Assembly (NCBI GenBank): GCA_050874905.1
Contig: JBNMLP010000008.1
Location: forward strand, 8,392-72,391
Direction of reading: 5' to 3'
DNA: 64,000 nucleotides
Origin: Lachnospiraceae bacterium
Lineage (GTDB): Bacteria > Bacillota > Clostridia > Lachnospirales > Lachnospiraceae
The number at the start of each line of letters is the position of its first letter. Position 1 is the first letter of the stretch. Of the stretch, positions 4,859-54,483 are shown piece by piece. Under the pieces are notes generated by a model, which searched no databases, had not been told where the DNA came from, and saw only the letters and a list, made by a program, of their open reading frames with translations. A program made the translations under genes and the position numbers.

Positions 4859-5446
4859 ATGGAATCAACCAAAGCTTATATCAAAGAGGATCGTTCCATC
4901 TATATAGACGAAAGCATTTTTTCTGATATTGCGGCCGGAGACCGTGACGCCTTTGCTGCGCTCTATGAAACCTGTTCTCGTGCCGTGTACGCCTTTTTGC
5001 TTACCTATGTAAAAAATACAGAAGATGCCAGCGATCTCATGCAGGATACCTTTTTGAAGATCCGCTCGGCAGCCGGACTTTATAAGCCCTATGGCAAACC
5101 AATGGCATGGATCTATACGATCGCCCGTAATTTTGCACTGATGAAACTTCGCAAAGATACGGCGCATCCTCAGGATGAATTAACAGAAACCAGCGCAGTT
5201 ACCACCAGCGTCGAGAAACAGATCGAGCAGAAGCTTTTGATCCGGGATGCTTTAGCAATCCTTTCCGAAGAGGATGTAAAGATCGTAGTGCTGCATGCAG
5301 TCAATGGCATGAAGCACCGGGAGATCGCAGAGCTTATGGGACTTTCCTTAACTGCCACCCTGAACCGCTACCACCGCGCTTTAAAGAAATTGAAAAAACA
5401 GATAGGAGGTGAGTCTTATGAATCGTGTGGAACGCCAACTGAATGA
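4859..5446 (+). CDS. ECF-type RNA polymerase sigma-70 factor
   Basis: Region 2 (DASDLMQDTFLKI, WIYTIARN) and region 4 (LHAVNGMKHREIAELMGLSLTATLNRYHRALKKL); overlaps the anti-sigma gene. Confidence 0.9.
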   Translation: MESTKAYIKEDRSIYIDESIFSDIAAGDRDAFAALYETCSRAVYAFLLTYVKNTEDASDLMQDTFLKIRSAAGLYKPYGKPMAWIYTIARNFALMKLRKDTAHPQDELTETSAVTTSVEKQIEQKLLIRDALAILSEEDVKIVVLHAVNGMKHREIAELMGLSLTATLNRYHRALKKLKKQIGGESYESCGTPTE

Positions 5447-6545
5447 ATCTTTTGACCAGATCTGTCCGGATTTTGACCACATATTGGAAACGATAGAACA
5501 AACTCCGGTTACCCCCATGCAGATACCCGATTCCATTGTCAGGCAGAATGTCCCTGTCACCCACCATCCACTTTCTTTCCTGAAAGAAAAAACATCCGGC
5601 ATGTTCTCCTCCCTGCGAGGCAGATCCGCACTCGCATATGCCTTGAGTTTTCTTTTGATCGTAAGCCTTACGAGCGGAATTTTTATCAACCGTTCTTATG
5701 TGAAAGCAGAAAGTCTGATCGCCATTGACGTAAACCCAAGTCTGGAGCTTGTCACAAACAAGAAAAACAAGGTAACAAAAGTGATTGGAAAAAATGAAGA
5801 TGCCGCCGCGATCATCGATGACATGAATCTGAAAAATGTAGATTTAAACATTGCAGTGAATGCACTGATCGGTTCGATGTTAAAGCATGGCTACCTGCAG
5901 GACGACGAAAACATTGTCTTAGTTTCCGTATCCAGCCGTGATCAGAAAAAAGCAAAGCAGATCCAGAACGACATTGAAGAAGATTTCACAAGCTCGCTTG
6001 CCGTCATTGACAAGGAAGCAACCGTGATCAAGCAGGACATCGTAAAAGATTCCTCGTTAAGCAAACAATCCAGCGAATATGGTATCTCGGAAGGAAAGAT
6101 GCAGTTTATCAATGAATTGCTCGCCTTAGATCCAAGTCTCAACAGCAATGTATTAGCTGCTATGAGCATCAACGAGTTGGCAAGCTTAGCCAAACAATAT
6201 CACATGATCCCGGAAACAGATACTTCTCCGTCCCCATCCATTACCGGAACAACCACGGAAGAAAAGAGGGAAGACAAGAAAAAGCCTGCCTCAGCAGATT
6301 CCGATCCGGAGGATTCCAAAAAGGAGGAAAATGCAGACAATGTAACTTCTGACGAAGAAACGGATGATACAGAGGACAGTGATGACGAGGATTTCCCAGA
6401 CGAAGAAGACGACGATTCTTCCTCTGGCAAGATAGACCAGAAATCAGATACCACAGAAGCCCCTTCTTCCCCGAATACGATCAACGAAGACGAGGAACCC
6501 GACACAAACAATGACCAGACGAATCGTCCCATTACTCTGGATTAA
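5418..6545 (+). CDS. RsgI-like transmembrane anti-sigma factor with acidic disordered C-terminal tail
   Basis: ATG at 5418 behind GGAGGTGAG; one TM helix followed by IAIDVNPSLEL RsgI extracytoplasmic-domain motif; Asp/Glu-rich tail. Confidence 0.75.
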   Translation: MNRVERQLNESFDQICPDFDHILETIEQTPVTPMQIPDSIVRQNVPVTHHPLSFLKEKTSGMFSSLRGRSALAYALSFLLIVSLTSGIFINRSYVKAESLIAIDVNPSLELVTNKKNKVTKVIGKNEDAAAIIDDMNLKNVDLNIAVNALIGSMLKHGYLQDDENIVLVSVSSRDQKKAKQIQNDIEEDFTSSLAVIDKEATVIKQDIVKDSSLSKQSSEYGISEGKMQFINELLALDPSLNSNVLAAMSINELASLAKQYHMIPETDTSPSPSITGTTTEEKREDKKKPASADSDPEDSKKEENADNVTSDEETDDTEDSDDEDFPDEEDDDSSSGKIDQKSDTTEAPSSPNTINEDEEPDTNNDQTNRPITLD

Positions 6546-6559
6546 ATATTCATAACCAA

Positions 6560-6594
6560 AAAGGATGCACCAGTCAGTGAGGTGCATCCTTTTC
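6560..6594. terminator. Bidirectional rho-independent terminator
   Basis: AAAAGGATGCACC...GGTGCATCCTTTT between convergent anti-sigma and kinase genes. Confidence 0.85.
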
Positions 6595-6597
6595 CTT

Positions 6598-8277
6598 TTA
6601 GAAGAAAAATCCCTTTTTCTTTTTTTCTTTTTTCTCTGCAATATCAGACAAATGTGTTTTCTGCGCCATGCGAAGCCGCATCTGCGTACCTACATCCTTC
6701 GTCAGATTATCTGATCCATTAGAAACAAAGACGTTGTCCTGTGCTGTCTTTAAAGAAAGTTTCACATGCTCCGGCTCTTTCTTGCTCTCCCGTTCTTCAC
6801 GCAACTCCTCTGAAACAGAGATTGGCTTTTTGGGGATCTGCATTGTGGTATGTTGGTGTTCCGCCGGTATATATTCCTTCGCATGCTTATCTCGCAGTGC
6901 AATAAAAAGCTTCAGCTTTTCTTCATTGGCGATCCGCCCGTTTTCCATTAAATGCTGCATTTCCATCTCATTATAAAAAGAACGGATTCCTTTGTAGTTC
7001 AGACAGTAATAGCCCTTTGCCAGAGAATGGCTGACATAGTAATAATTGTCATTGGCATTTAAATGCTCCAAAAGATCAAGTACCGGATAATTTTTTAAAC
7101 TGCCGCCGACCGGCTGAATATAGTTCTGATATACGATCAGATTATTCACCGCATATTTGGCAGACTTGATATCCTGAAGAAGCTGCTCCGGTTCTATATC
7201 GATCACCTTGTTATTATTCGTATCATACAAACGATAACCCATGATCTTACCATCCCGTTCCTGAAACGTTGCGATCATATGAAGATCCTTCACCCTGTTC
7301 TGCTCTGTGGTAAGTGCAAGCCGCAGATCTCTCACACTCTGAAAACGGTCACTTCCCCGTACACGTAAGCCCTTTTCGATCGCCTCACACTGCGCTTTTG
7401 TAATATCTAAATGGAAATCCTGAAGCGGGATATGCTCATCGTCCACCAGACGATCCATCGCCTCCGGCAGAATATGATCCGTCATCATCTTATACATCGT
7501 TGCACAAAGGGCATACACATCCGTCCACGGTCCCTGTTTTCCCTTGGTACGGTACTGCTCCTCCGGTGCATATCCACGTTTTAAAATGATCGTCAGGCTT
7601 TTGCCGCTCTCATCATTCGTCAGACGTGCAGCTCCAAAATCGATCAGCTTAAATGCCCCATCCACCCGGATCATAATATTATCCGGACTGATATCACGAT
7701 GGATCACACCTTTTTCATGAATTTTCTCTAACGCTAACAGCACCGGCATCATCAGCTCGATCGTTTCTGTCGGACTTAAGGTACCATTCGTCTGAAGATA
7801 TTCCTTTAATGTGATTCCTTCCACATACTCCATTACAATGTAGGCAGTATTGTTCTCATGGAAAAAGTCACGGATGGAAACAATTCCTTCCAGATCTCCA
7901 AACTGCTGCAACACCTGTGCCTCATGGGTATATTTGTCAAATCCGTTTTTATAAAGATTCTCATCCTTTTTGTTGTAAAAATATACATAGGTCGAACCGC
8001 CATGGGTACAGTCACGACTCGCCACATTGATTGGAAAATACTCTTTGATCGCAACCGGAGTTTCATTCAGTTTATCCCAGCCAATATAAGTAATACCGAA
8101 GCCGCCCTCTCCGATCACCTTGCCTACAACATAACGGTTGTGCAGCAGAGTTTTGAGCGGAAGACTGCGTGGATTTGGTTCATATGCTTCCTCTGCAAAT
8201 CCACAGTATGGACATACTTCAATATCCTTTGGCACCATTGCCATACATGAATAGCATAAACGTTTTTCTCCGTTCAT
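6598..8277 (-). CDS. Hanks-type Ser/Thr protein kinase with N-terminal double CxxC zinc ribbon and unknown C-terminal domain
   Basis: CYSC/CPYC, IGEGGFGITY, VAIKEY, HRDISPDN, DFG, YAPEEQ; no TM or PASTA seen; ATG 8277 preferred over TTG 8298. Confidence 0.92.
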   Translation of the reverse strand: MNGEKRLCYSCMAMVPKDIEVCPYCGFAEEAYEPNPRSLPLKTLLHNRYVVGKVIGEGGFGITYIGWDKLNETPVAIKEYFPINVASRDCTHGGSTYVYFYNKKDENLYKNGFDKYTHEAQVLQQFGDLEGIVSIRDFFHENNTAYIVMEYVEGITLKEYLQTNGTLSPTETIELMMPVLLALEKIHEKGVIHRDISPDNIMIRVDGAFKLIDFGAARLTNDESGKSLTIILKRGYAPEEQYRTKGKQGPWTDVYALCATMYKMMTDHILPEAMDRLVDDEHIPLQDFHLDITKAQCEAIEKGLRVRGSDRFQSVRDLRLALTTEQNRVKDLHMIATFQERDGKIMGYRLYDTNNNKVIDIEPEQLLQDIKSAKYAVNNLIVYQNYIQPVGGSLKNYPVLDLLEHLNANDNYYYVSHSLAKGYYCLNYKGIRSFYNEMEMQHLMENGRIANEEKLKLFIALRDKHAKEYIPAEHQHTTMQIPKKPISVSEELREERESKKEPEHVKLSLKTAQDNVFVSNGSDNLTKDVGTQMRLRMAQKTHLSDIAEKKEKKKKGFFF

Positions 8278-8447
8278 CCGAAAATCCCCCGATTCCAATC
8301 ATAAAATGCAAAATTATCTAATTTAATAATAACTGGTATAGAGGGAAAATGCAATCACATTTTCTTTGAAACGCAAGAATAGGTATGCTACAATAAACCC
8401 ACAGAAATAAGTATTTTTTAGTTCTTTCCAAAGAAAAGGAGCATGCT

Positions 8448-9659
8448 ATGTCAAAATACCATAAACTAAGCGAAGAAACACAAGCACGCATTTTATCCGA
8501 CCGCAGGGAGCATATCACAAATCCCAGCCGCACACCAGATGAAGCGATCATAAGGAAGAATCCGGATCGGGACAAAGCAAGCCTTTGGCGACCTGCCTTT
8601 GCCCGTGACATTGATAAGATCATGAATCTTCCCTATTACAATCGTTATGCCGATAAAACACAGGTATTTTCTTTCTATAAAAATGATGACATCTGCCGCC
8701 GTTTCTTACACGTGCAGCTTGTTTCCCGCCATGCCAGAAGCATCGGCCGCCTGCTGGGACTAAACGAAGATCTGATCGAAGCCATCGCACTGGGACACGA
8801 TATTGGACACACGCCGTTCGGACATGCCGGAGAACGCCTGTTAAGCCAGAAATTGCAAGAGCATACCGGAAGGTATTTTCATCACAATGTCCACAGCGTA
8901 CGGGTGCTTGAAACGCTTGCCCCGTGGAACATCAGTTTACAGACTCTGGACGGAGTATTATGTCACAACGGAGAACTGGAATTGCAGGAATACCGCCCGG
9001 TTTCAGAGCGAGATTTTGCCACACTTGATAAGATGGTAGAGCAATCCTATACCGATGATGCTGTCATCAAGCAGTTTGTTCCCATGACACTGGAAGGCTG
9101 TGTGGTTCGTGTCTGCGACATTATCGCCTATCTCGGAAAAGATCGCCAAGATGCCTTGCGCCTCGGTATGCTTTCCGATGAATCTCCGTTTTATAATGAT
9201 ACCATCGGACATACCAATCCAGAGATCATCAACAATATGATCGTGAATATCATTGAAAACAGTTACGGAAAACCATATCTGAAAATGGATGATGCCTATT
9301 TTGAAGCATTTAAAAATGCAAAAAAAGAAAATTACAGCATTATTTATCGTCAGGACAGCATGAATGACGTATTTCAGACACAGGTTACCCCTATGTTTGA
9401 TGCTGTTTATGAAGCCCTGTTAAAACAGGCCAAGAGTGGGCAGATCTCCTCTTTGTTCTACAAGCATCACATCGCCTTTTTACAGCAGTGCAATGCCTAT
9501 GTACCGGATTTTTCGCTGGAAGCCTATTTAGAAACAGAGCCAAACCAGCAGGTCGTAGATTATATTGCAAGTATGACCGACGATTACTTTGTAGATCTTT
9601 ATCACACACTCTTTCCAAAAGGAAATTATCACATTCCTTACCGTGGTTATTTCTCTTAA
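8448..9659 (+). CDS. dgt: HD-domain dNTP triphosphohydrolase (dGTPase-like)
   Basis: FARDIDKI, RYADKTQVF, LGHDIGHTPFGHAGE, CHNG, CDIIAY, DYIASMTD motifs. Confidence 0.85.
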   Translation: MSKYHKLSEETQARILSDRREHITNPSRTPDEAIIRKNPDRDKASLWRPAFARDIDKIMNLPYYNRYADKTQVFSFYKNDDICRRFLHVQLVSRHARSIGRLLGLNEDLIEAIALGHDIGHTPFGHAGERLLSQKLQEHTGRYFHHNVHSVRVLETLAPWNISLQTLDGVLCHNGELELQEYRPVSERDFATLDKMVEQSYTDDAVIKQFVPMTLEGCVVRVCDIIAYLGKDRQDALRLGMLSDESPFYNDTIGHTNPEIINNMIVNIIENSYGKPYLKMDDAYFEAFKNAKKENYSIIYRQDSMNDVFQTQVTPMFDAVYEALLKQAKSGQISSLFYKHHIAFLQQCNAYVPDFSLEAYLETEPNQQVVDYIASMTDDYFVDLYHTLFPKGNYHIPYRGYFS

Positions 9660-9694
9660 ACGAAACCGTCTTTATCCGGCTGGTTCAAAAACGC

Positions 9695-9729
9695 AAAAAA
9701 ACAACTCCCGTTATGGAAGTTGTTTTTTT
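9695..9729. terminator. Bidirectional rho-independent terminator
   Basis: AAAAAAACAACTCCC-gtta-TGGAAGTTGTTTTTTT between convergent genes. Confidence 0.75.
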
Positions 9730-9736
9730 ACGTTTA

Positions 9737-10906
9737 TTACATCCAGTCTGCCTTATCGCACTGTAATGCTAAAAATACAAATTCCTCATCTGCCAGAACA
9801 ATGACATCATTGTGTTTCATCGGCATCGGGCCAAATAACAGCTCATCATTGATATAGATCAGATCTCTTGTTTCATCCGGCTGCAGGAAGCATTTTTTGG
9901 AACGTGGATCATAGGTAATGATCGCATGACGATCTCTGCTGATCTTGCTGTTTCCGGATAAACAAATATCCATCGCAGTGGAACGTCCAATGAAATTACG
10001 TCCTTGTTTTACTTCGTAGCTTCTTCCTTTATGTGCACCCTTAATAGCAACCAGCCATCCGATCACCGGATTGGAATTCAGTTCTTCCGGTGTAATGTCA
10101 TCCGGAATACGGCTTGATACGGCACTTGCAACCGTGTCCTTTAACGTCGTCTTCTCTTCTTCCTCCTGTGGCGTTTCTTGTGCCTCAAATGGCTGCGGTT
10201 TTGTTTCGTCTTCCTCTTTGCTCTCTGGCTCTGGTTCCGGTTCTGTTACCGCTTCTGGTTCTTCTGAAACAACCGGCTCCTCTGCTACTGCTGCCGCTGC
10301 CACTGCTTCCGGCTCCTCAGCAGCCACCGGTTCTTCTGTCTTTGCTTCATCCAAAGGAATCTCCGGTTCTGCCGGAGCACTTTCTTCCTCCCCGGAAGAC
10401 TCCGGTTCTTCGATTTCCACAGTATCTTCTTCCAATTCCGGCTCTATGTTCTCCTCTGTCCGCTCCGGCTCTGTATTGACCGCAGATGCAGGAACTTCTT
10501 CCGGCTCGATCACGATCTCCTGCTCTTCCTCGCGTTTTTCCTCATGAGGAACAAATTCTTCTTCCACCTGTAGCTGCTCCACTTTCTCAGCCGCTACGGC
10601 TGCCTCCTGCTCATTTAAACGGATGGTCACCATTTCATCCAGATCTTCTTCCTCGTTCGCTGCCGCCGCTGGTTCCGGTGTTTCCTGCACCGGCTGGCTG
10701 GAAGAAAACATCATACGATCCTCTACTTCCACCTTCTTCTGTGGTTCCGGTTCTTTCACCGGTGCAACCGGCTCCTCTTTTTTGGCATCCGGATCTTCAT
10801 ATGCTACAGTTTCACTCGGTGCCACCTGCATCCCTGTACAGTGTGGACAAGAGGTAAACTTATCCTTATCATAAAAATGCCCTCTCTCACATCTGGCTAA
10901 TCTCAT
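9737..10906 (-). CDS. FHA-domain protein: N-terminal Cys/His zinc knuckle, long Glu/Pro-rich linker, C-terminal FHA
   Basis: RCERGHFY...SCPHC at N-terminus; about 250 aa acidic linker; GWLVAIKG...FIGRS...KISRDRHA FHA core. Confidence 0.85.
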   Translation of the reverse strand: MRLARCERGHFYDKDKFTSCPHCTGMQVAPSETVAYEDPDAKKEEPVAPVKEPEPQKKVEVEDRMMFSSSQPVQETPEPAAAANEEEDLDEMVTIRLNEQEAAVAAEKVEQLQVEEEFVPHEEKREEEQEIVIEPEEVPASAVNTEPERTEENIEPELEEDTVEIEEPESSGEEESAPAEPEIPLDEAKTEEPVAAEEPEAVAAAAVAEEPVVSEEPEAVTEPEPEPESKEEDETKPQPFEAQETPQEEEEKTTLKDTVASAVSSRIPDDITPEELNSNPVIGWLVAIKGAHKGRSYEVKQGRNFIGRSTAMDICLSGNSKISRDRHAIITYDPRSKKCFLQPDETRDLIYINDELLFGPMPMKHNDVIVLADEEFVFLALQCDKADWM

Positions 10907-10927
10907 GTTACATCCTCCTTTATGTTT

Positions 10928-11710
10928 TTATTCTTCTTCCTGATAATAAATGACAACGACCGAAGTATTGTCCTGACTGGTAAGAGAAGACAATACTGCT
11001 GTTTCTGTCAAGGTATCTGCTGCCGTCTGCGCATCCGGGAAATGAGACACACAGATCTCATGAATCTTTTTCTCCGGCAGCGTCCGATAGAGTCCATCAC
11101 TGCACAACAGAACGACATCCTTTGGCTGTAACAGAAACGGCTCTAAGTTAATATCCATCAGCGAAACATTTCCAATTCCTAAAAAACTGATCAATGCTTC
11201 CGCCTTGCTTTCCTCCTGCTCATACACTTCCTTTGTGATCTCGCCGCTTTGCAGTGCCTGATCCAGGCGCATCCGGTAATTATGATCCCGGTTGACTGCC
11301 ATGATCTCTTTTCCACGAAGAATGTAGATCCGGCTGTCCCCCACGGAAAGCCAATAAAGTGCATTCTGCTCAATGATCGCAGCCACTACCGTTGTTCCTG
11401 CACCGAGCAGCTTTCGTTCCTCATCTGCCAGCTCATGCACCACCGTATCCATCTCGATCGCCTCCTGGCGCATGAAATAGGGAATCTTCATGGTGCGATC
11501 CCGTTTCTCGTAATCTTCTGCAAATGTCTGCAATGCGGTCTGGCTCGCAAGTGCGCCGCCATTTAATCCACCCATTCCATCGCAAAGCACTGCCATCGCA
11601 GAATCTTTATGAACTTCTCCATAGACACTGTCCTGTTGATCCGGTCTTGTTCCGATCAGACTGGATACCCCCAGTGACAATCGCCTTGGTTTCTTATTCG
11701 TATCACACAT
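10928..11710 (-). CDS. PP2C-family Ser/Thr phosphatase
   Basis: GTRPDQQD, LCDGMGG, VGDSR, LCSDGL, QDNTS motifs. Confidence 0.92.
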   Translation of the reverse strand: MCDTNKKPRRLSLGVSSLIGTRPDQQDSVYGEVHKDSAMAVLCDGMGGLNGGALASQTALQTFAEDYEKRDRTMKIPYFMRQEAIEMDTVVHELADEERKLLGAGTTVVAAIIEQNALYWLSVGDSRIYILRGKEIMAVNRDHNYRMRLDQALQSGEITKEVYEQEESKAEALISFLGIGNVSLMDINLEPFLLQPKDVVLLCSDGLYRTLPEKKIHEICVSHFPDAQTAADTLTETAVLSSLTSQDNTSVVVIYYQEEE

Positions 11711-12923
11711 GCATGACTCCTACTTTCATAACTGTATTTCTGTCTCCAATGGAAAATGTCTGTCCCGGCAGTAGTTCATGCAGTGTTCCCTGTGCAAGAC
11801 GAACTCCGTTTACATACGTGCCATTCGTGGAATAATCTTCCAGATAAAAACGGTCCTTTTCTGAATCATAGTATATCTCGCAGTGATGTTTGCTCACGTA
11901 AAGATTCTTTGGAATTGCAATATCTGACTGTTTGGAACGTCCTACCGTAATGATCGTATCTTTTAAAATATTAAAGCGGCGTCCGGCATGTTCTCCTTTG
12001 ATCGACTCCACATAAGGAGAGATCACTACCTTATCATCATAGAGCGTGGTATCCAGTCCCAGCTCCACCATAAACTGCTTCATATCCTGCGTTCGCTCCC
12101 GGTAATCAAGCATCAGCGCATGATCTACCGCCCGCGATAATTCCGGAGTCAATTCCGGGAAAATAACACGAAGTGGAATATAGGACTCCCCGCTCAGCCG
12201 CTCCGGAGCAGTCGGGATCATCATTCCGGTCATACAGTAATACATCGTCCCCGCTAAGGAATATACATCGGTAAAGCTGCCCTGCACGCCCCGCTGTGAA
12301 TACTGTTCCGGCGGAGCAAAACCCGGCTTTAACGCAATGGACGCTGTTTCATTGCGCACACTCAGATTGTTTTTGGCATTTCCAAAATCAATCACCCTGA
12401 CTTCATTGTTTGTTGTGATAAAAATGTTATCCGGGCTGACATCCCGATGAAAAATTCCTTTTAATTCATGTACTTTGTTTAAGGCATATGCGACATTTCC
12501 TATGATCGCCAGTGTCTCACCGCTTCCGAGCCGTCCGTTCTTTTCCTTCAGATGTTCCTTGAGCGTCTTTCCCTCCAGATACTGCATAATAAAATACGAA
12601 GTATTGTTCTGGTTGAAGCAGTCCATAACCGGAACGATACCCGGAATGGAATCCAGACGCCTGAGTACATCGGCTTCCTCTAAGAATTTCTTTCGTCCAT
12701 GTTCCAAAGAGGTCACGGAATCTGCTGATTTTGGTTCGATATGATAACCATCCTCTGCACGCCGGCACAGAGAATTTGGGGCATACTCTTTCATTGCATA
12801 CACCTTGTCGGTATAGACATCCAGTACCTTATAGGTGATGCCAAACCCTCCGATGCCTATCACATCCATGATCTTATAACGATTTTTGATCGTCTGGTGT
12901 ATCGGTAATGTGAACTGTCCCAT
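11703..12923 (-). CDS. Ser/Thr protein kinase with C-terminal FHA domain
   Basis: IGIGGFGITY, AMKEY, HRDVSPDN, DFGNA, FAPPEQ; C-terminal VGRS...VSKHH...STNGTYVNG. Confidence 0.92.
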   Translation of the reverse strand: MGQFTLPIHQTIKNRYKIMDVIGIGGFGITYKVLDVYTDKVYAMKEYAPNSLCRRAEDGYHIEPKSADSVTSLEHGRKKFLEEADVLRRLDSIPGIVPVMDCFNQNNTSYFIMQYLEGKTLKEHLKEKNGRLGSGETLAIIGNVAYALNKVHELKGIFHRDVSPDNIFITTNNEVRVIDFGNAKNNLSVRNETASIALKPGFAPPEQYSQRGVQGSFTDVYSLAGTMYYCMTGMMIPTAPERLSGESYIPLRVIFPELTPELSRAVDHALMLDYRERTQDMKQFMVELGLDTTLYDDKVVISPYVESIKGEHAGRRFNILKDTIITVGRSKQSDIAIPKNLYVSKHHCEIYYDSEKDRFYLEDYSTNGTYVNGVRLAQGTLHELLPGQTFSIGDRNTVMKVGVMHV

Positions 12924-12948
12924 TTGTTACGTCCCCGCCTTTCCAACG

Positions 12949-13317
12949 TTAATCCAGCCGGAAATTATTTCCTGACTGTCCAATAATGATAAATGTTCCT
13001 TTTGGAACAATACGGCTTTTTCCTTTCTCAATGCGCTCTCTTCCAATGAATGTTCCATTGGTGGAGTGATCTGTCACAATGTACGTGTGATCCTGTGGAT
13101 CAAATGTAATCGTACAGTGCATCCGGCTCACGTTATTGTCATCAATGATCAGCTCCGAACATGCCGGGTCACGACCAATGACCACACTGCCGTCAAACTC
13201 GATCTTGCTGCCCTCATACTGCCCTTTGGTTGCCGTAAGTGTTGTGATCGTGCTTAACTGTTCTTCTTCCTGATCTTCCTGCCGTTCACTGGCCTGAAAA
13301 AATCTTAATAATCCCAT
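12949..13317 (-). CDS. Stand-alone FHA domain protein
   Basis: VIGRD...VSRMHC...STNGTF. Confidence 0.9.
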   Translation of the reverse strand: MGLLRFFQASERQEDQEEEQLSTITTLTATKGQYEGSKIEFDGSVVIGRDPACSELIIDDNNVSRMHCTITFDPQDHTYIVTDHSTNGTFIGRERIEKGKSRIVPKGTFIIIGQSGNNFRLD

Positions 13318-13347
13318 GCTGCTACCTCCTGAATCTGTTCCCTGTTT

Positions 13348-14094
13348 CTATTGTTCTGCTTTCTCCTGCGTAACCCATACGACCACCGCAGAATAATTGT
13401 CCATATTCTGCCCATGTCCCTGCATTTTCACATGTGCCGCCATCTCAGAAAGCCATTGTTCCACGCTGTCTGCTTCGTTTAAAAGCTGCTGCATCTTCGC
13501 TTCCACAATGTGCTCCCAGAAACCATCGGAGCATAATAAAAATGCCTGTTCCTCTTTTACGGAAATCGGTTCGGATAAGGTAAACTCGTCTTTTTCCCAC
13601 GGCCTGCCCATCGCCTTCAATAACCGGTTCCGATCCGGATGATGCCTGATCTCGTCTTCTGTAATTTCACCCGCATATACTAAAATCTGTGGGACACTGT
13701 GGTCAAGCGTGTGCGTAACCAGCGTACCATTCTCAAAATAATATAATCTGGAATCTCCCACATGTGCCCATTGAATGGCAGAACCAATCGATAAGAGCAC
13801 CATCGTTGTCATCATATCACCATATGCGTTTTTCTGTTTGGTATCACATAACTCCTGTTGTGCGCTGCGGAACGTCTCCTCCAAAAAGTCCGGTGCCAAG
13901 CGTTTCTCCGGCTGCAAAAAACAAGACTCTACTGCCTCACACACTGTCCTGGAAGCAACTTCTCCAAAACCATGTCCGCCGAGTCCGTCCGCAACAGCAA
14001 ACATGTACTGCCCTTCTGTCCCTAAAGTCAGTACCGCGTCCTCATTATAACTACGATCACCAACCATAGAAATACTGGCATACTGCACCTTCAT
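13348..14094 (-). CDS. PP2C-family Ser/Thr phosphatase
   Basis: GDRSYNED, VADGLGG, VGDSR, LCSDGFW, MDNYS; start placed at MKVQY (14094), ORF track extends 55 codons further upstream. Confidence 0.9.
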   Translation of the reverse strand: MKVQYASISMVGDRSYNEDAVLTLGTEGQYMFAVADGLGGHGFGEVASRTVCEAVESCFLQPEKRLAPDFLEETFRSAQQELCDTKQKNAYGDMMTTMVLLSIGSAIQWAHVGDSRLYYFENGTLVTHTLDHSVPQILVYAGEITEDEIRHHPDRNRLLKAMGRPWEKDEFTLSEPISVKEEQAFLLCSDGFWEHIVEAKMQQLLNEADSVEQWLSEMAAHVKMQGHGQNMDNYSAVVVWVTQEKAEQ

Positions 14095-14262
14095 TCTTTT
14101 GCCTGTTTCACTTTTTGTCATCTGTCCTAAGCTCCTGCATTTATACTGCCACACATCTACTCTCTCTAGTATACAACAAAACTGCCCATTAGAAAATAGG
14201 CAGTTGTTAGTTTTGTATAAAATTTTTCTGATTCTCATTTGATTCAAGTTAAATTGCACAAA

Positions 14263-15699
14263 TCATAGAACGTCCCACAAAGGCTCTAAATGATATATAC
14301 CATTATAGAATGCACCACATATAGAGTCGTAATCCTCCCACGCATACGAGGTAAGGGAAAGCCAGAAAATCGTATGGATGAAGCGTAGCGTCATACGATC
14401 CACCTCGTCCCCCAGCAGTTCCAGATAAAACTCCTCCATATCTTCCCAGTGATTAGAACCGGTCTGCACCTCGACCTCATTTTCATGGATCGACAGTGAA
14501 AAGTTCTTGTTATTAAACTGATCGAAATTACCTGCCACCGAATAGTAAAGCTTTGCCCAGTCATATTTGGCATCCCCGTAAAGCTCTGTAAATCCAAAAT
14601 AACCACGCGGATCAATCAGGATCGGTTCTCTCCCCTCGTCCGTTTCCCGAAACATAATATTGGAAAACGTACAATCTCCATGAATGACGGTGAATTCCTC
14701 TGTCGCAAGTTTTTCTGTCAGTTGTTCAAATGCTTCCTTATGAAATAAAATGTTGCGGCAGCGGCGTTTGTTGACCACGATTTCCTTCTGGTCGGCAAAT
14801 GGGATCACATCCCGCACCTGATTCAAACGATCAAACGTCTTGTCCGCATAAGCATTCTTCAAACTTGCTTTCTCTGCCGGAATTTTTCCAAGTGCGTGCA
14901 GCTTCTTCAGCATGTCCACGGTATCCGTAAGCATGGCTGCCTTTTCCTCGTAAGTCAGATGCTCATAGGCATACATATTTTTTCCCGTGATACGTTCCAT
15001 AATAAATGGTTCATAACTGTAGATACGCGGCAATTGTTCAAATCCCATCTGTTGTACTGACTGATACCATGAGATCTCGCGTGCCGCAAGCTGCTGCCCC
15101 TGTGCATCGCGCCCCTCTTTTAATATGAACTCTTCTGACCATTCCATCTGATTAAACGGGCGGCAATGCCGGTCCACCACCTGTTTCACTTTTTCTATGG
15201 AATCATAACAAATGCTGCCTTTTAAATCCCATACTTCTGTCTGCGCAGGGTTCACAGTATCTGTAAAAAACTGTTCTACCAGTGCTTTCGTATTCTTTTC
15301 CTCTCCATTCCGGTACAAAAGGGCAGCATTTTTTCCATCAATCCGTCCGAGAAACGTATCATTTTCTTCCGGGAATGCACAATCCTTCGCCAGGATCACA
15401 TTTCCCTTGATCAACAATGCCTGCCCGGCAGACTGCCATTTTTCCTTTATCGTGTCAGTAAGCTGTTCCCTTTTTATGATCGTCATATCTCCTTTAAAAA
15501 AAGAAGAAACATAACGCTTTAATACATCAAATTGATAATCGCCTACTACGATATAATGTGCTTTGGGAAATCGTCGTAACAAATGGAACAGGATTGGACA
15601 GTTATCCACCGGCACCAATGCATTGGGCTTATTTTGGGTATAATATGCCAATGCCTCACCACGTTCCTCCGCCTGAACCAGAATATATTGTAACTGCAT
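14263..15699 (-). CDS. Fusion of degenerate nucleotidyltransferase-like domain and APH/choline-kinase-like phosphotransferase
   Basis: N-terminal VQAEERGEAL...TQNKPNALVPV; C-terminal IHGDCTFSNIMF and LIDPRGYFG; ATG 15699 behind AAGGAG. Confidence 0.7.
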   Translation of the reverse strand: MQLQYILVQAEERGEALAYYTQNKPNALVPVDNCPILFHLLRRFPKAHYIVVGDYQFDVLKRYVSSFFKGDMTIIKREQLTDTIKEKWQSAGQALLIKGNVILAKDCAFPEENDTFLGRIDGKNAALLYRNGEEKNTKALVEQFFTDTVNPAQTEVWDLKGSICYDSIEKVKQVVDRHCRPFNQMEWSEEFILKEGRDAQGQQLAAREISWYQSVQQMGFEQLPRIYSYEPFIMERITGKNMYAYEHLTYEEKAAMLTDTVDMLKKLHALGKIPAEKASLKNAYADKTFDRLNQVRDVIPFADQKEIVVNKRRCRNILFHKEAFEQLTEKLATEEFTVIHGDCTFSNIMFRETDEGREPILIDPRGYFGFTELYGDAKYDWAKLYYSVAGNFDQFNNKNFSLSIHENEVEVQTGSNHWEDMEEFYLELLGDEVDRMTLRFIHTIFWLSLTSYAWEDYDSICGAFYNGIYHLEPLWDVL

Positions 15700-15795
15700 A
15701 CTGCAACTCCTTATGTCAGTTTGTTTTTTCATACTTATCCACTATTTTACTAATAATCACAAGGATTTGCAAGAGGGCATAAACCATCTCACTTT

Positions 15796-41794: not shown

Positions 41795-43300
41795 TTATTC
41801 CCCTTTCGTTTCCATCATTTTCTTGGCAAAGGATTGAAATACCTTGTTGACATGAGTGAAACAAAGTGTCACTTCATCCCCCTCCATTTTCGTGATCTTC
41901 GCATAAACATTGGCAAATAAAGCTCTTCCACCACGCTTGGCGGCAAAGATCTCCACATCTAAAAATTCTTCCAGATGCACATCACCAGCATCCTCCAGCA
42001 TGACTTTCGCTGTTTTTCTGGAAAAGTAGATCAAGGTAGCACTAGCTGCCTGATCGGATATCATTTTGCCTTCTACCGGATAGAGGTTAAAGATGACGCG
42101 GTCTTTGACCTCCACCATTTTCTCCTCTGCCCGCTTGTGAAGCTCGCAGGCATAACTTCCGGTCAGTCCCGTCACCTCACAGATCGGGATGGGCATTTTA
42201 GCCCCCTTTACGCTGATCTCAATCAGATTGTGAAGCTTTGCCTGACAGGCAAGCTGGTCGATCAAATGCTGCGATACAAGAACCTGTCCTCCCACACTAT
42301 AACTTTCGATACGGGAACAGAGATTTACCACCTGTCCCATCACATTATACCGCATCATACGGTTGGAGCCCACATTTCCAACAAACACTTCTCCACAATG
42401 CAGTCCGATTCCCATTTCCAACACCGGATAGCCATACTGTGTGCAATACGCATTGACCGTCTCCATCCGGTTCTGCATTCCGATCGCTGCTGCAATCGCC
42501 TGTTCATGTTGATCCTCCATCCAAAGCGGCGCACCAAACACTGCTAAAATAGCATCTCCAAGATATTCAATCACAGTACCATGATACCGGTTGATCACAT
42601 CGAGCATCTCTTCAAAAAAATGGTTTAAGATGTCTGTCACAGCTTCCGGTTCCAGTGTTTCTGACATCGAAGTAAAACCTCTCAGATCCGCCATCATGAT
42701 CGTTGCCTCACATTTCTTTCCACCGATCACTGCCCCCTCCGGATTATGGATGATCTGTTCTACCACCTGGTCAGAAAAATAGCGGCCAAAAATCTGGTAA
42801 AGCAACTCATTGCGCTGTTTTAATTTCTCATTCAGGCGCGCGATCTCCTTCGCCACCCGCAGATCACTCGCCTGTTTCTGCAGCAGGATTTCATAATTCT
42901 TTGTCACCTGATACTGCCATGCAGCATGTGCAATACGATGCTGTTCTCCCTGCGAAAACGGTTTGTGAAGCACGACGGTTGCTCCTTTGCTATAGCATAG
43001 CTCATCCATCGCAACACTCCGGTCATGCATCATAAAAAAGAGTGGCACACCTGCCAGACTCTGTTCCTGTTTCAACATGCTGATCGCCTGTTCTGACTCT
43101 TCTACTGCATTCTCGTAATCAACCAGAATAAGAGATGGGGCATTTTTCAGCACCCCCATCTCATCCTTTTGCATCAGCGCACGCTTTAATGCTTCTAACG
43201 ACAGAATGCAGACGGCACGCATACTGCCATCTGCATTGAGTTGTCGTTGTGCCTCGATCATTTCCTGTTTGACTGTATTGAATACCCAGATATGTTTCAT
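41795..43300 (-). CDS. Atypical receiver domain + coiled coil + class III nucleotidyl cyclase + C-terminal beta-rich (PilZ-like) domain
   Basis: LILVDY...HKPF receiver remnants; ADLRGFT, VIEYLGDAI, GLHCGEVFVGNVGS, RYNVMGQVVNLCSRIES cyclase motifs. Confidence 0.88.
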   Translation of the reverse strand: MKHIWVFNTVKQEMIEAQRQLNADGSMRAVCILSLEALKRALMQKDEMGVLKNAPSLILVDYENAVEESEQAISMLKQEQSLAGVPLFFMMHDRSVAMDELCYSKGATVVLHKPFSQGEQHRIAHAAWQYQVTKNYEILLQKQASDLRVAKEIARLNEKLKQRNELLYQIFGRYFSDQVVEQIIHNPEGAVIGGKKCEATIMMADLRGFTSMSETLEPEAVTDILNHFFEEMLDVINRYHGTVIEYLGDAILAVFGAPLWMEDQHEQAIAAAIGMQNRMETVNAYCTQYGYPVLEMGIGLHCGEVFVGNVGSNRMMRYNVMGQVVNLCSRIESYSVGGQVLVSQHLIDQLACQAKLHNLIEISVKGAKMPIPICEVTGLTGSYACELHKRAEEKMVEVKDRVIFNLYPVEGKMISDQAASATLIYFSRKTAKVMLEDAGDVHLEEFLDVEIFAAKRGGRALFANVYAKITKMEGDEVTLCFTHVNKVFQSFAKKMMETKGE

Positions 43301-51355: not shown

Positions 51356-52342
51356 TCAAAACAAATCTTCACTCACCGGAATCTGCATCATTTCTGTCAG
51401 ATCCCCTTCTTTGTTGATCAGCAGCCAGAGCTTTACGTACATAGCAACCGGAGAAGCCGGAGGCAGGAAATGCAGATCCGTATCCAGTGCCTTCACACTT
51501 TCATACTGCGTCTCTCCTGTTGCGCCCACAACAAACACCGGAATTCCTGCACGGTTCAGCTGCTTCATAAACTTCTCAAAATGAGGAGTCTTGTTGCACA
51601 AAGTTCCGGAATGGTAGGTATTCATTAAAACTGCTTTTGCATCTGAGAACACAGACGGAAGCTGCATGCCAGGATAAGAAAAAATACGCTGCACGGAACG
51701 ATCTTCGCTCAACATTTTCACACCGAGACCCTCTTCCGTACTTTCGCCTTTTTTATATGCTGCATTTTCCTGATAAACGCCATTTTCATAGTAACCAAGA
51801 TACTGGTCAAAAATGCTGTAAATCTCATCACTCAGCGGAAGATGCGGCAGCACTCTTGTCGCCCGGTGAATATATACCTTTTTGTCATGATTCTGGTAGG
51901 CAATATAACATCCCGGTCTTCCCTGATCCAGAATAAAGTCCGCAGCCGCTTCAAAGTTTGCCACACCATTGGCTCTTTCATCCTCCAACACATAATTGCT
52001 GGACGCAAATAAAATCGGGATCTTCGTGTCCGCAAACATGTAATCCATCGCTGCCGCCATATACTGCACAGTATCTGTCCCATGCAGTACAATGATCCCT
52101 TTATAGTCTCTTGACATGTTTTCCCGGATACACGATGCTAAACAGTTGATCGTAGCCGCTGTCACATTTTCACTTAAAATGTAGTACGGATTTACCGTAT
52201 CAAAAAATACATTTTTAAAATCTTCTCTGGAATTCACGATCTGCTCCAGAAGCTGATGTTTTTTTGCTTCATCCACAGCTACATATTCTCCTGATACAGA
52301 ACTTCCAATCGTTCCACCTGTATAGATTACTAAGATCTTCAA
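51356..52342 (-). CDS. ansA: L-asparaginase, type I
   Basis: YTGGTI and HGTDT catalytic Thr motifs; no signal peptide. Confidence 0.85.
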   Translation of the reverse strand: MKILVIYTGGTIGSSVSGEYVAVDEAKKHQLLEQIVNSREDFKNVFFDTVNPYYILSENVTAATINCLASCIRENMSRDYKGIIVLHGTDTVQYMAAAMDYMFADTKIPILFASSNYVLEDERANGVANFEAAADFILDQGRPGCYIAYQNHDKKVYIHRATRVLPHLPLSDEIYSIFDQYLGYYENGVYQENAAYKKGESTEEGLGVKMLSEDRSVQRIFSYPGMQLPSVFSDAKAVLMNTYHSGTLCNKTPHFEKFMKQLNRAGIPVFVVGATGETQYESVKALDTDLHFLPPASPVAMYVKLWLLINKEGDLTEMMQIPVSEDLF

Positions 52343-54483
52343 TCTGATTCCTCCTTTTTGAGTACCGGAGCAATGATCGGTTCAAACACTCTGCGATCCT
52401 GTATTTTTTTATCCGGTACATTTTGTTTTGCCTGCTCGCAGAAATAATCCTGTGAGTTGATACTTTCTTTTCCTCTGCGATCCGGTTTGACGTAACTGCC
52501 GTCCGGATTCAGAATATGGGCTTTCACATTATCCGAAAGTTCTACTTCCAGAATATGTACGACCTCTTCCTTGAGCACTTCATCCTCGACTGGAAAGAGT
52601 ATTTCCACACGGCGGTTTAAATTACGCGGCATCCAGTCCGCACTGGACATATACACTTCATCCCAGCCGTCATTGTAAAAATAATAAATGCGGCTGTGCT
52701 CCAAAAAGTTACCAACAATAGAACGCACTGTAATATTTTCGCTGATACCAGGTATACCTACCTTTAAGCAGCAAATTCCACGTACGATCAGATCAATCTT
52801 TACTCCAGCTGCCGAAGCCTCATAAAGAGCTGCAATGATGCCATGATCGCAAAGGGAATTCATCTTTGCTACAATTCTGGCTTCCTTGCCTTCCTCTGCA
52901 TGCTTTTGCTCCCGTCTGATCAATTCTAAGAAACGATCCCGAAGCCAGATCGGGGCACAGGCAAGCTTGTTCCAGACCGGTGGCTCTGAATAACCGGAAA
53001 GCATATTAAAGACTGCGGTTGCATCCTCACCAATCAGTTCTGAAGCGGTGAACATACCAAGATCTGTATATAATTTTGCAGTACTGTCATTGTAGTTACC
53101 CGTTCCCAGATGTACATAGCGGCGGATACCATCTTCTTCCCGGCGTACCACCAATGTGATCTTACTGTGCGTCTTTAAGCCCACCAGGCCATAAATAACA
53201 TGGCAGCCTGCCTGTTCCAGCTTCTTCGCCCAGATAATATTATTTTCCTCGTCAAAACGTGCTTTTAATTCTACTAAAACCGTGACCTGCTTTCCGTTTT
53301 CTGCTGCCTGCGCAAGTGCTGCAATGATCGGGGAATGTCCCGATACGCGGTATAACGTCTGCTTAATCGCCAGCACAGAAGGATCTTTTGCCGCAAGCTT
53401 TACAAAGTCCACGACCGGATCAAACGTTTCATACGGATGGTGCAGTAAAATGTCACGCTTTCGGATCTGCTCAAACAGATTCTGATCCGGCACCAGCATC
53501 TTTGCCGGCTGTGGCACCCACTTTTTGTAACGCAGGTGTTCAAATTCCGGCATACCGCTGATCTTCATAAGAAAAGTCAGATCCAACGGTCCCTGAATGG
53601 AAAAAACATCCTCGTCATTAACGGACAGCTGTTTTTTCAATTCTTTCAGCAGTTTTTTGTCTGCATGCGCCTCGATCTCCAACTTGATCACCTCGCCCCA
53701 TTGACGACGTTTTAACTGTTTTTCAATCTCCTGCAGCAGATCTTCTGCCTCTTCCTCATCGATGCTTAGATCTGCATTTCTCATAATACGATAAGGATGT
53801 GCACAAATGACACGATTATTCAAAAAGAGCTTTTGCAAGTTCTTTTCTATGATCTCCTCTAAGAGGATCACCTTTTTTCCTTCCCCTTCTTCTGCTGGAA
53901 GTGGCACGATCCTCGGAAGCACTGACGGCACCTGTACAGTGGCAAGATCATACTCTCCACCATGATCCCGGTTCGAGATCAACGCAGCAATGTTCAGTGT
54001 CTTATTTCTGACCAGAGGAAATGGTCTTGAGGAATCTACCGCCATCGGTGTCAGTACCGGATAAACATTTTTCTCAAAGTAGTCATCCACATAGACAGCC
54101 TGTTTTTCATTCAACTGTTCATAATGCTCGATCAAATGGAAACCTTCTTTTTTCATGGCAGGAAGCAGCATCCGGTTTAAAGTATGATACTGATCCTCCA
54201 TCAACTGATGGGTTTTTTCATTGATCGCAGCAAGCTGTTCTTTTGCCGTCATACCGGCAATATCTTTTTTGGTATATCCGGCATGCTCCTGATCCTTTAA
54301 CGATGCCACACGCACCATAAAAAATTCATCCAGATTCGATGCCGTAATACTAAGAAATTTGATCCGTTCAAACAGTGGTATGCTCTTATCCTGCGCCTCA
54401 TGCAGCACCCGGTAATTGAAATCAATCCACGACAGTTCCCGGTTAGAGTAATATTCCGGTCTGGTATACTTCTTATCTGCCAT
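52339..54483 (-). CDS. ppk1: Polyphosphate kinase 1
   Basis: NRELSW, NLDEFFMVRVA, LHHPYE, ELKARFDE, KTHSK, GNFLEHSR, SADWMPRNL. Confidence 0.97.
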   Translation of the reverse strand: MADKKYTRPEYYSNRELSWIDFNYRVLHEAQDKSIPLFERIKFLSITASNLDEFFMVRVASLKDQEHAGYTKKDIAGMTAKEQLAAINEKTHQLMEDQYHTLNRMLLPAMKKEGFHLIEHYEQLNEKQAVYVDDYFEKNVYPVLTPMAVDSSRPFPLVRNKTLNIAALISNRDHGGEYDLATVQVPSVLPRIVPLPAEEGEGKKVILLEEIIEKNLQKLFLNNRVICAHPYRIMRNADLSIDEEEAEDLLQEIEKQLKRRQWGEVIKLEIEAHADKKLLKELKKQLSVNDEDVFSIQGPLDLTFLMKISGMPEFEHLRYKKWVPQPAKMLVPDQNLFEQIRKRDILLHHPYETFDPVVDFVKLAAKDPSVLAIKQTLYRVSGHSPIIAALAQAAENGKQVTVLVELKARFDEENNIIWAKKLEQAGCHVIYGLVGLKTHSKITLVVRREEDGIRRYVHLGTGNYNDSTAKLYTDLGMFTASELIGEDATAVFNMLSGYSEPPVWNKLACAPIWLRDRFLELIRREQKHAEEGKEARIVAKMNSLCDHGIIAALYEASAAGVKIDLIVRGICCLKVGIPGISENITVRSIVGNFLEHSRIYYFYNDGWDEVYMSSADWMPRNLNRRVEILFPVEDEVLKEEVVHILEVELSDNVKAHILNPDGSYVKPDRRGKESINSQDYFCEQAKQNVPDKKIQDRRVFEPIIAPVLKKEESD

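Follow-up and report, generated by a model that had tools for sequence, protein, structure and literature searches.

What do Hanks-type kinases, PP2C phosphatases and FHA proteins do when they are encoded side by side and none of them appears to reach the membrane? This question is raised by a 64,000-nucleotide (nt) stretch of chromosome from an uncultured gut Lachnospiraceae bacterium, in the following called the window. On its minus strand five contiguous genes encode a PP2C phosphatase (PP2C_a), a small FHA protein (FHAs), a kinase fused to an FHA domain (KinFHA), a second phosphatase (PP2C_b) and a zinc-knuckle FHA protein (ZnFHA), and a second kinase (K1) is found beyond a gene for a dGTPase-like HD phosphohydrolase. 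An earlier note on this DNA had interpreted the six proteins as a self-contained, all-cytoplasmic signalling cascade, possibly a stress or defence module of undescribed type. Modules of this kind are known from few models, namely mycobacterial cell division, activation of the type VI secretion system (T6SS) and the archaeal Arn network. Judged by sequence comparison, the locus derives by reduction from a widespread, uncharacterised clostridial cluster built from known parts, and we regard it as somewhat probable that it is a resident chromosomal, cytoplasmic phospho-threonine module which was derived from that cluster by loss of all membrane parts.

A membrane-free locus and its clostridial relatives

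Genes of the window were taken from a listing of open reading frames (ORFs) combined with Pfam, which placed every domain of the five-gene row, and the kinase domain of K1, as the earlier note had stated. In all seven proteins of the locus the maximum of a 19-residue hydropathy window was 1.4 or less, compared with 2.1–2.2 for two membrane-protein controls encoded in the window. No PASTA domain was detected in the locus proteins with Pfam and NCBIfam, no vWA domain was found anywhere in the 64 kb with a profile built from 22 vWA-FHA proteins, and profile searches of the same 64 kb retrieved no further kinase, PP2C or FHA gene. The claims that transmembrane (TM), PASTA and vWA parts are missing and that the cluster is self-contained and entirely cytoplasmic are thus supported as far as the sequence goes.

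More than 1000 homologues of KinFHA were found, mostly in Lachnospiraceae and other Clostridia and mostly annotated just as ‘FHA domain-containing serine/threonine-protein kinase’. The window proteins served to build profiles, with which 88 loci (numbered L001 and so on) were mapped, and representatives were checked by Pfam; counts for KinFHA loci refer to 24 non-redundant ones, 20 of them distant (31–45% identity) and four belonging to the clade of the window. A PP2C gene directly follows KinFHA in 23 of the 24. The typical order in distant loci is PP2C, Zn-FHA, vWA-TM-FHA, KinFHA, PP2C, Zn-FHA, a 3–4TM-FHA protein and large TM kinases with a Zn ribbon. Membrane proteins are encoded in all 20 distant clusters and in none of the four clade clusters, the vWA-TM-FHA protein being present in 15 of the 20; among kinases without FHA fusion across the 88 loci, 109 of 140 carry a TM segment. 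ZnFHA is clearly orthologous to the Zn-FHA protein that follows KinFHA and PP2C in these clusters (about 100 bits in the FHA domain, conserved knuckle, expanded linker).

The vWA-FHA proteins of the relatives consist of a signal or TM segment, the vWA domain, about 200 residues, a TM helix and a cytoplasmic FHA domain (L001 6918–8750, L003 8249–9943, L085 8263–10008 and 19 others). The helix between vWA and FHA was predicted in 21 of 21, usually together with the N-terminal signal or TM segment, so that the vWA domain is probably extracytoplasmic and the protein looks like a receptor coupling an extracytoplasmic vWA domain to phospho-threonine signalling. Some distant clusters also encode ABC exporters that bear two FHA domains at the N-terminus (L001 13694–16072, also L006, L027, L030 and L052), which we take to resemble mycobacterial Rv1747, and L001 additionally encodes LytTR response regulators. 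These genes hint at a role of the ancestral cluster in the regulation of an envelope or export function.

The flanks of the 88 loci did not reveal any family beyond kinase, FHA, PP2C and vWA that recurs in more than five of them, and no EssC/WXG100-type genes of the type VII secretion system (T7SS) were present in the Pfam contexts of clade and near-clade loci. Since no flanking family is recurrent, no link to T7SS, T6SS or another known machine emerges; homologous clusters as a regular part of a T7SS or other characterised locus, which the earlier note had named as the finding that would speak against it, were not encountered. Among 2.9 million viral contigs six weak relatives and no clear KinFHA were retrieved, five of them matching the kinase domain only and the match of the sixth (L091), with 27% identity over residues 15–377, reaching beyond that domain. 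For the clostridial cluster itself neither a paper nor a characterised member was found in the open-access and bioRxiv literature. Gut Lachnospiraceae and Oscillospiraceae commonly carry it. The description of the locus as a module of undescribed type is not supported, in that it is a reduced version of a widespread cluster and its PpkA-type kinases (see below) make its domain set that of known threonine-phosphorylation pathways.

The clade of the window comprises four genomes with 60–100% identity. Its gene contexts were obtained from exact-protein look-ups, L095 being the sole clade locus added by a metagenome scan with FHAs; a scan of GTDB showed no member of the clade among the matches listed. 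The host of the locus was found in pig and other gut metagenomes. L081/L095, L084 and L087, in which KinFHA is 60–75% identical, have all five genes in unchanged order, and no vWA gene was seen in the clade loci L081, L084, L087 and L095. Orthologues with as little as 60% identity still have the catalytic and binding motifs. Housekeeping genes flank the locus in a synteny that holds across about 67% protein identity: upstream genes on the topoisomerase side are common to window, L081 and L095, downstream nrdDG to window, L081 and L087, and dut to L081 and the window only. The arrangement is also found in two other strains, with contigs that differ at about 3–4% and <0.1% of positions over the locus. 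Apart from the locus, the window is ordinary chromosome with nrdDG, dut, endonuclease IV, topoisomerase, SHMT, SpoIIP, ComEC, ThrRS, AspRS, Ppk/Ppx and HydF.

Kinases, phosphatases, FHA proteins and their genes

Glycine loop, catalytic lysine, HRD, DFG and APE motifs are all kept in KinFHA and K1, and K45, HRD159 and DFG179 of KinFHA are invariant. In searches of the PDB, PpkA (5hnv) was the best solved relative of both, with 145 bits for KinFHA (62 for PknB) and 147 bits for K1 (84 for StkP/PknB); the E-values of the two kinases were 9e-42 and 3e-41 for PpkA and about 1e-22 and 1e-16 for PknB/StkP. By these matches both kinase domains are PpkA-like, i.e., of the T6SS type, and not PknB/PrkC-like. 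PP2C_a aligned to tPphA (2j82) shows the NED, DGLGG, GDSR, SDG and DN motifs, and the metal-binding motifs of PP2C_b are likewise intact in the alignment to tPphA, with all five metal-binding aspartate motifs in both, which bears out the earlier claim of intact catalytic motifs. Compared with the NCBIfam Stp1/IreP model PP2C_a reached 162 bits, under the cut-off of 230. The relationship between the two phosphatases is distant, and the position of each is conserved across the family.

K1 carries an N-terminal Zn ribbon of the form CxxC...CxxC (C15/C18, C29/C32) and a tail rich in Lys and Glu, and its C-terminal region is without Pfam match. Within this region a beta-rich domain (residues ~330–500; window 6799–7311) was modelled by AlphaFold2 with a mean confidence (pLDDT) of 83.6. 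A Foldseek comparison of the model with the PDB did not give a fold match (best E 0.25, TM-score <0.2), and an exhaustive search of 1.8 billion representative proteins yielded 10 relatives at E<=1e-3, faint ones being the N-termini of BspA-type leucine-rich repeat proteins and one DUF2201 protein. This orphan domain would be the sole candidate input domain of the module.

Of the three FHA domains that the earlier note had counted all are present, yet only two are canonical. The FHA domain of KinFHA has the GR, SRxH and NG motifs, and the same motifs are conserved in FHAs, which further shows a conserved MGLLRFF N-terminus and an acidic tail; according to the alignment its Thr-rich stretch coincides with the first FHA beta-strand and not with a tail. 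Outside the clade the nearest match of FHAs is the FHA domain of the 3–4TM-FHA proteins that follow Zn-FHA (50–58 bits, 44% identity). Two other origins were rejected: FHAs is not the leftover C-terminus of the missing vWA-FHA gene, as its best matches are FHA domains of TM-FHA and not of vWA-FHA proteins, nor is it a switch of the GarA/OdhI type, since it lacks the ETTS motif and scored 32.6 bits with the OdhI model, whose cut-off is 200. The third domain, that of ZnFHA, belongs to a divergent subfamily (28.8 bits with Pfam), in which G-R and R..H-A are kept and the asparagine of the canonical NG is replaced; Ser323, the residue expected to contact phospho-threonine, is Asn or Gln in close clade relatives, and the best PDB match of the domain profile had an E-value of 0.003.

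In front of this domain ZnFHA has a Zn knuckle (C6, H10, C20, C23) and an acidic, disordered linker of about 240 residues with 30% Glu and 12% Pro. The linker evolves freely in length, from about 60 to about 320 residues across orthologues, while knuckle, Thr33 and FHA domain remain fixed, and the only insertions and deletions within the operon between strains are in-frame ones in this linker. They are located at 10233 and 10299, where one run lacks 6 nt and another has an insertion of 15 nt. Knuckle and Thr33 are invariant in nine sequences, the residues around Thr33 being variable; in the window it lies in the motif T-V-A-Y just after the knuckle. FHA domains prefer motifs of the type T-x-x-(Y/F/M/I/L). 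A T-x-x-[LIMFYV] motif after the knuckle occurs in 29 of 52 Zn-FHA tails, as against 12.6±2.9 in shuffles, and a T-x-x-hydrophobic motif in 14 of the 16 tails that follow KinFHA-PP2C. Thr33 is accordingly placed here as the best candidate for a phosphorylation or docking site.

The coordinates of genes and signals are compiled in Table 1.

Table 1. Genes and transcription signals at the kinase, phosphatase and FHA locus, in window coordinates.
Feature	Position	Strand	Description
PP2C_a	13348..14094	-	PP2C Ser/Thr phosphatase, first gene of the operon; Pfam PP2C_2 1.6e-13
FHAs	12949..13317	-	Stand-alone canonical FHA protein of 122 aa; Pfam FHA 1.9e-15
KinFHA	11703..12923	-	PpkA-like Hanks kinase with C-terminal canonical FHA domain; Pfam Pkinase 2.4e-31, FHA 2.1e-18
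PP2C_b	10928..11710	-	Second, divergent PP2C; Pfam PP2C_2 6.2e-10
ZnFHA	9737..10906	-	Zn knuckle, acidic linker and divergent C-terminal FHA domain; Pfam FHA 1.8e-06, 28.8 bits
K1	6598..8298 (ORF), probably 6598..8277	-	N-terminal Zn ribbon and kinase; Pfam Pkinase 9.9e-36
dGTPase-like HD phosphohydrolase	8448..9659	+	Pfam HD and HD_assoc
Bidirectional intrinsic terminator	9690..9734	.	Hairpin of -25.6 kcal/mol, z -9.2; A-run before, U-run after
Terminator of upstream APH-like gene	14174..14209	-	Hairpin of -16.2 kcal/mol, z -4.9, then U-rich tract
Terminator 3' of K1	6557..6594		Follows K1
APH-like 489-aa protein	14263-15732		Unassigned N-terminal region of ~190 aa fused to APH-type small-molecule kinase domain

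The five genes are spaced by 30, 25, -8 and 21 nt, the start of PP2C_b overlapping the stop of KinFHA by 8 nt. These short or overlapping junctions, together with the strong hairpin terminators on both sides, define the five genes as one operon. Its downstream terminator, which a simple terminator scan did not pick up, is a near-perfect hairpin of 20 bp common to the convergent ZnFHA operon and HD gene, and the upstream one splits the APH-like gene from the operon. K1 is monocistronic with a terminator of its own; K1 and the HD gene are transcription units apart from the operon. K1 probably starts at ATG 8277, preceded by the ribosome-binding site GGGGGA, and not at TTG 8298; for PP2C_a ATG 14094 or 14121 is the likely start rather than GTG 14259. 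Orthologues of PP2C_a have 247–251 residues. A promoter consensus scan gave no enrichment over shuffles. Metatranscriptome contigs of low depth cover K1 and the operon, some of them bridging the FHAs/KinFHA and KinFHA/PP2C_b junctions, and provide weak support for expression and co-transcription of the operon; the HD gene was uncovered in the same run. A look for RNA-seq of isolates in the index brought up none.

With regard to the neighbouring genes, the divergent K1/HD pair adjoins the operon in three of the four clade genomes. Compared with L081 (13075–16132) and L087 (13377–16451), the pair as a whole has the opposite orientation in the window (6598–9659). In L081 the HD gene is followed by nrdD-nrdG-dut on the same strand, which assigns it to deoxynucleotide metabolism, and as it also forms a separate transcription unit it was discarded as a part of the module, of which it is probably just a neighbour. 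The HD protein remained below all dGTPase equivalog cut-offs of NCBIfam (196 vs 393; 83 vs 400 for the anti-phage dGTPase model). The APH-like gene was rejected as well, owing to the terminator in between and its absence from the flanks of the other clade loci. A gene pair for an extracytoplasmic function (ECF) sigma factor and an RsgI-like anti-sigma factor (4859–6545) is situated between K1 and nrdD in the window; in L087 it is found between nrdD and the HD gene, and L081 lacks it. The C-terminal ~110 residues of the anti-sigma factor (5409–6545) form an extremely acidic, low-complexity tail rich in Asp, Glu and Ser. A class III adenylate/guanylate cyclase gene (41795–43300) and the polyphosphate kinase/exopolyphosphatase pair Ppk-Ppx (52339–56027) have no evident link to the cluster.

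Proposed mechanism and competing explanations

In the module proposed here, the two PpkA-type Hanks kinases, KinFHA in the operon and K1 next door, would write phospho-threonine marks on the activation-loop threonines of the kinases themselves and on the FHA proteins of the cluster, with Thr33 of ZnFHA as the best candidate among these. The canonical FHA domains of KinFHA and FHAs would read the marks and bring about a kinase/scaffold complex, and the two divergent PP2Cs, each acting perhaps on different marks, would erase them and reset the switch. Since no enzyme effector or DNA-binding domain is encoded in the module, its output would be exerted through phospho-dependent protein binding by ZnFHA, via knuckle and acidic disordered linker, and by FHAs. 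Push-pull modules of FHA proteins, kinase and phosphatase have functional precedents in ArnA/ArnB (PMC12852372) and in DRA0331–0334 of Deinococcus (see below).

Several observations weigh against this proposal. One clade genome (L084) has no K1 in the neighbourhood, and the K1 of the window is a separate transcription unit beyond the intervening HD gene. The FHA domain of ZnFHA may not bind phospho-threonine, because the NG asparagine is missing and the contact serine varies within the clade, and the case for phosphorylation of Thr33 comes entirely from conservation among sequences which, being related, are not independent. Evidence for expression is thin, as the metatranscriptome contigs are of low depth and could contain DNA.

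Furthermore, the inspection covered 64 kb of the genome, and membrane partners could be encoded elsewhere. This agrees with the best of the alternatives, although we consider it unlikely: the module would not be self-contained but one cytoplasmic limb of an envelope signalling pathway like those of its distant relatives, whose vWA-TM-FHA, TM-FHA and TM PpkA-like kinase proteins are encoded at another place. The constant coupling of KinFHA, PP2C and ZnFHA to membrane proteins in the 20 distant clusters, some with FHA-ABC transporters, and the extra short kinases a few kb away in clade genomes would agree with such an arrangement. However, no other vWA, FHA, PP2C or kinase gene was present in the 64 kb, and the four clade loci share the membrane-free gene set despite different flanks. 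FHAs, moreover, resembles a TM-FHA protein without its membrane region, and this speaks for a genuine relocation to the cytoplasm.

A function in defence against phages, as contemplated in the earlier note, is distinctly improbable. According to this explanation the kinases would, like Stk2 or PD-T4-6, be the effectors of a module for phage defence or abortive infection; they would be restrained by PP2Cs and FHA scaffolds and possibly act with the dGTPase-like enzyme, and kinase/PP2C/vWA triads of the TerY-P-like type are indeed validated defence systems (PMC10542128). A defence-system check with PADLOC returned matches of both kinases to the PD-T4-6 and mad6 kinase models (1e-40 to 1e-50), of KinFHA also to Stk2, and a single weak PP2C match of PP2C_a to the candidate PDC-M21C (2.4e-15), while the neighbouring HD protein matched the dGTPase model (2.9e-42). 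These kinase matches are, however, confined to the generic kinase domain, with 118–128 bits for the NCBIfam MAD6 model (cut-off 460) and 41–45 for PglW (cut-off 990), and the HD protein fell far below the anti-phage dGTPase cut-off given above. Neither the Zn-FHA nor the small FHA protein had a PADLOC match, and the same applied to vWA-FHA proteins of the relatives (tested for L001, L003 and L085). The vWA protein of a triad is lacking, and the kinases end neither in a Zn ribbon nor in any OB fold that could be detected. The surroundings likewise speak against defence: the locus is stable among syntenic housekeeping genes and kept in the two other strains, no integrase or mobile element was seen, methyltransferase or other partner genes of Stk2, PD-T4-6, MADS and BREX systems were not found nearby, clear phage-borne relatives are missing, and the HD gene goes with nrdDG-dut.

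A bolder variant, which appears slightly more doubtful still, would combine the loss of membrane parts with a new input. The clade would have turned an envelope-linked complex into a free cytoplasmic sensor, in which the orphan domain of K1 perceives an intracellular cue, for instance phage infection or nucleotide stress, and the kinases, restrained by two PP2Cs and three FHA scaffolds, act as effectors of growth arrest, dormancy or abortive infection, possibly together with dGTPase, nrd and dut. If this were true, the module would represent immunity or a stress checkpoint of a new, kinase-based kind, and a defence or dormancy switch of this design would add a scaffold-regulated kinase system to the bacterial immune mechanisms.

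Finally, that the locus is a decaying remnant of a larger membrane-linked cluster without function of its own is hardly credible, since, although vWA-FHA, one Zn-FHA, the TM part of TM-FHA and the TM kinases have been lost relative to distant relatives and the contact serine of ZnFHA varies, all five ORFs are intact, their motifs are conserved down to the most distant clade orthologues, gene order and overlaps are preserved and transcript fragments were detected.

The cytoplasmic phospho-threonine module favoured here would be a minimal, fully soluble six-protein version of the family and as such tractable for reconstitution in vitro. Its solubility makes questions that concern the whole family testable, i.e., which kinase phosphorylates which substrate, whether Thr33 serves in docking, and for what reason there are two PP2Cs.

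Comparison with known systems

The Firmicute pair PrkC/PrpC (Stk1/Stp1) resembles the locus in combining a Hanks kinase with an Stp1-like PP2C (150–162 bits to NF033484, cut-off 230), but the window proteins have neither TM nor PASTA parts, are accompanied by FHA partners, and comprise PpkA-type kinases, which reached 115–146 bits with the PrkC-type model NF033483 (cut-off 450). The actinobacterial cluster fhaA-fhaB-pstP-rodA-pbpA-pknA-pknB resembles the locus in bringing together a PP2C, two Hanks kinases and two FHA proteins. However, neither rodA nor pbpA flanks the cluster of the window, TM and PASTA parts are missing and the kinases are PpkA-type; FHAs scored 56 bits with the FhaB/FipA model, under the cut-off of 125.

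The TerY-P triad is defined by a TerY-like vWA protein, a PP2C and a Ser/Thr kinase with a C-terminal Zn ribbon or OB fold (PMC10542128). Shared with it are the co-encoded kinase and PP2C, the Zn ribbon on K1 and, in the relatives, a vWA protein. In the window the PP2C is present, but vWA is missing, the Zn ribbon of K1 is N-terminal and KinFHA ends in an FHA domain, so that vWA protein and kinase architecture do not agree with the triad, to whose definition FHA domains are foreign in any case.

By domain content, the nearest experimentally studied bacterial analogue is the operon DRA0331–DRA0334 of Deinococcus radiodurans, which encodes vWA, serine/threonine protein kinase, FHA and FHA-PP2C proteins and exerts FHA-mediated push-pull control of kinase phosphorylation (bioRxiv 10.64898/2026.01.23.701218). 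It differs in the fusion of FHA to PP2C, in the presence of a vWA gene and in the lack of a Zn-FHA protein.

The T6SS pathway of PpkA, PppA and Fha1/TagH consists of the same parts, namely Hanks kinase, PP2C and FHA protein, and follows the same logic of writing, reading and resetting. PpkA of P. aeruginosa carries a vWA domain (PMC1262709), and the distant clostridial relatives likewise have an extracytoplasmic one; in the window it is absent, and in the relatives it resides on a separate FHA protein. The window, moreover, derives from a Firmicute, its FHA domain is fused to the kinase and T6SS genes are lacking: large ORFs sampled across the window were all housekeeping genes and included no T6SS structural genes, the TagH model TIGR03354 gave 44–49 bits (cut-off 120), and PppA was not the best PP2C match for the phosphatases of the window.

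A further parallel is found in the Archaea. In Sulfolobus, ArnA consists of a Zn finger and an FHA domain and ArnB has a vWA domain, the kinases being ArnC and ArnD and the phosphatase PP2A, and formation of the ArnA/ArnB complex depends on phosphorylation, its output being unclear (PMC12852372). ZnFHA shares the architecture of ArnA, with an N-terminal Zn-binding knuckle and a C-terminal FHA domain, and the distant clostridial clusters place Zn-FHA alongside a vWA protein and Hanks kinases, just as ArnA has ArnB as its partner. In contrast to the Arn network, the clostridial phosphatase is a PP2C and not PP2A, ZnFHA has a long acidic linker, and the ArnB-like vWA partner is missing in the clade of the window and membrane-anchored and extracytoplasmic in the relatives. 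ArnA (5a8i/8s05) was not retrieved from the PDB with ZnFHA or its profile, which gave no similarity beyond the generic FHA fold, and the likeness may be one of analogy rather than homology. Nevertheless, the parallel with ArnA/ArnB and with the PpkA pathway of the T6SS suggests a recurrent design across domains of life, in which a Zn-binding FHA adaptor, a vWA protein, a PpkA-like kinase and a phosphatase are combined.

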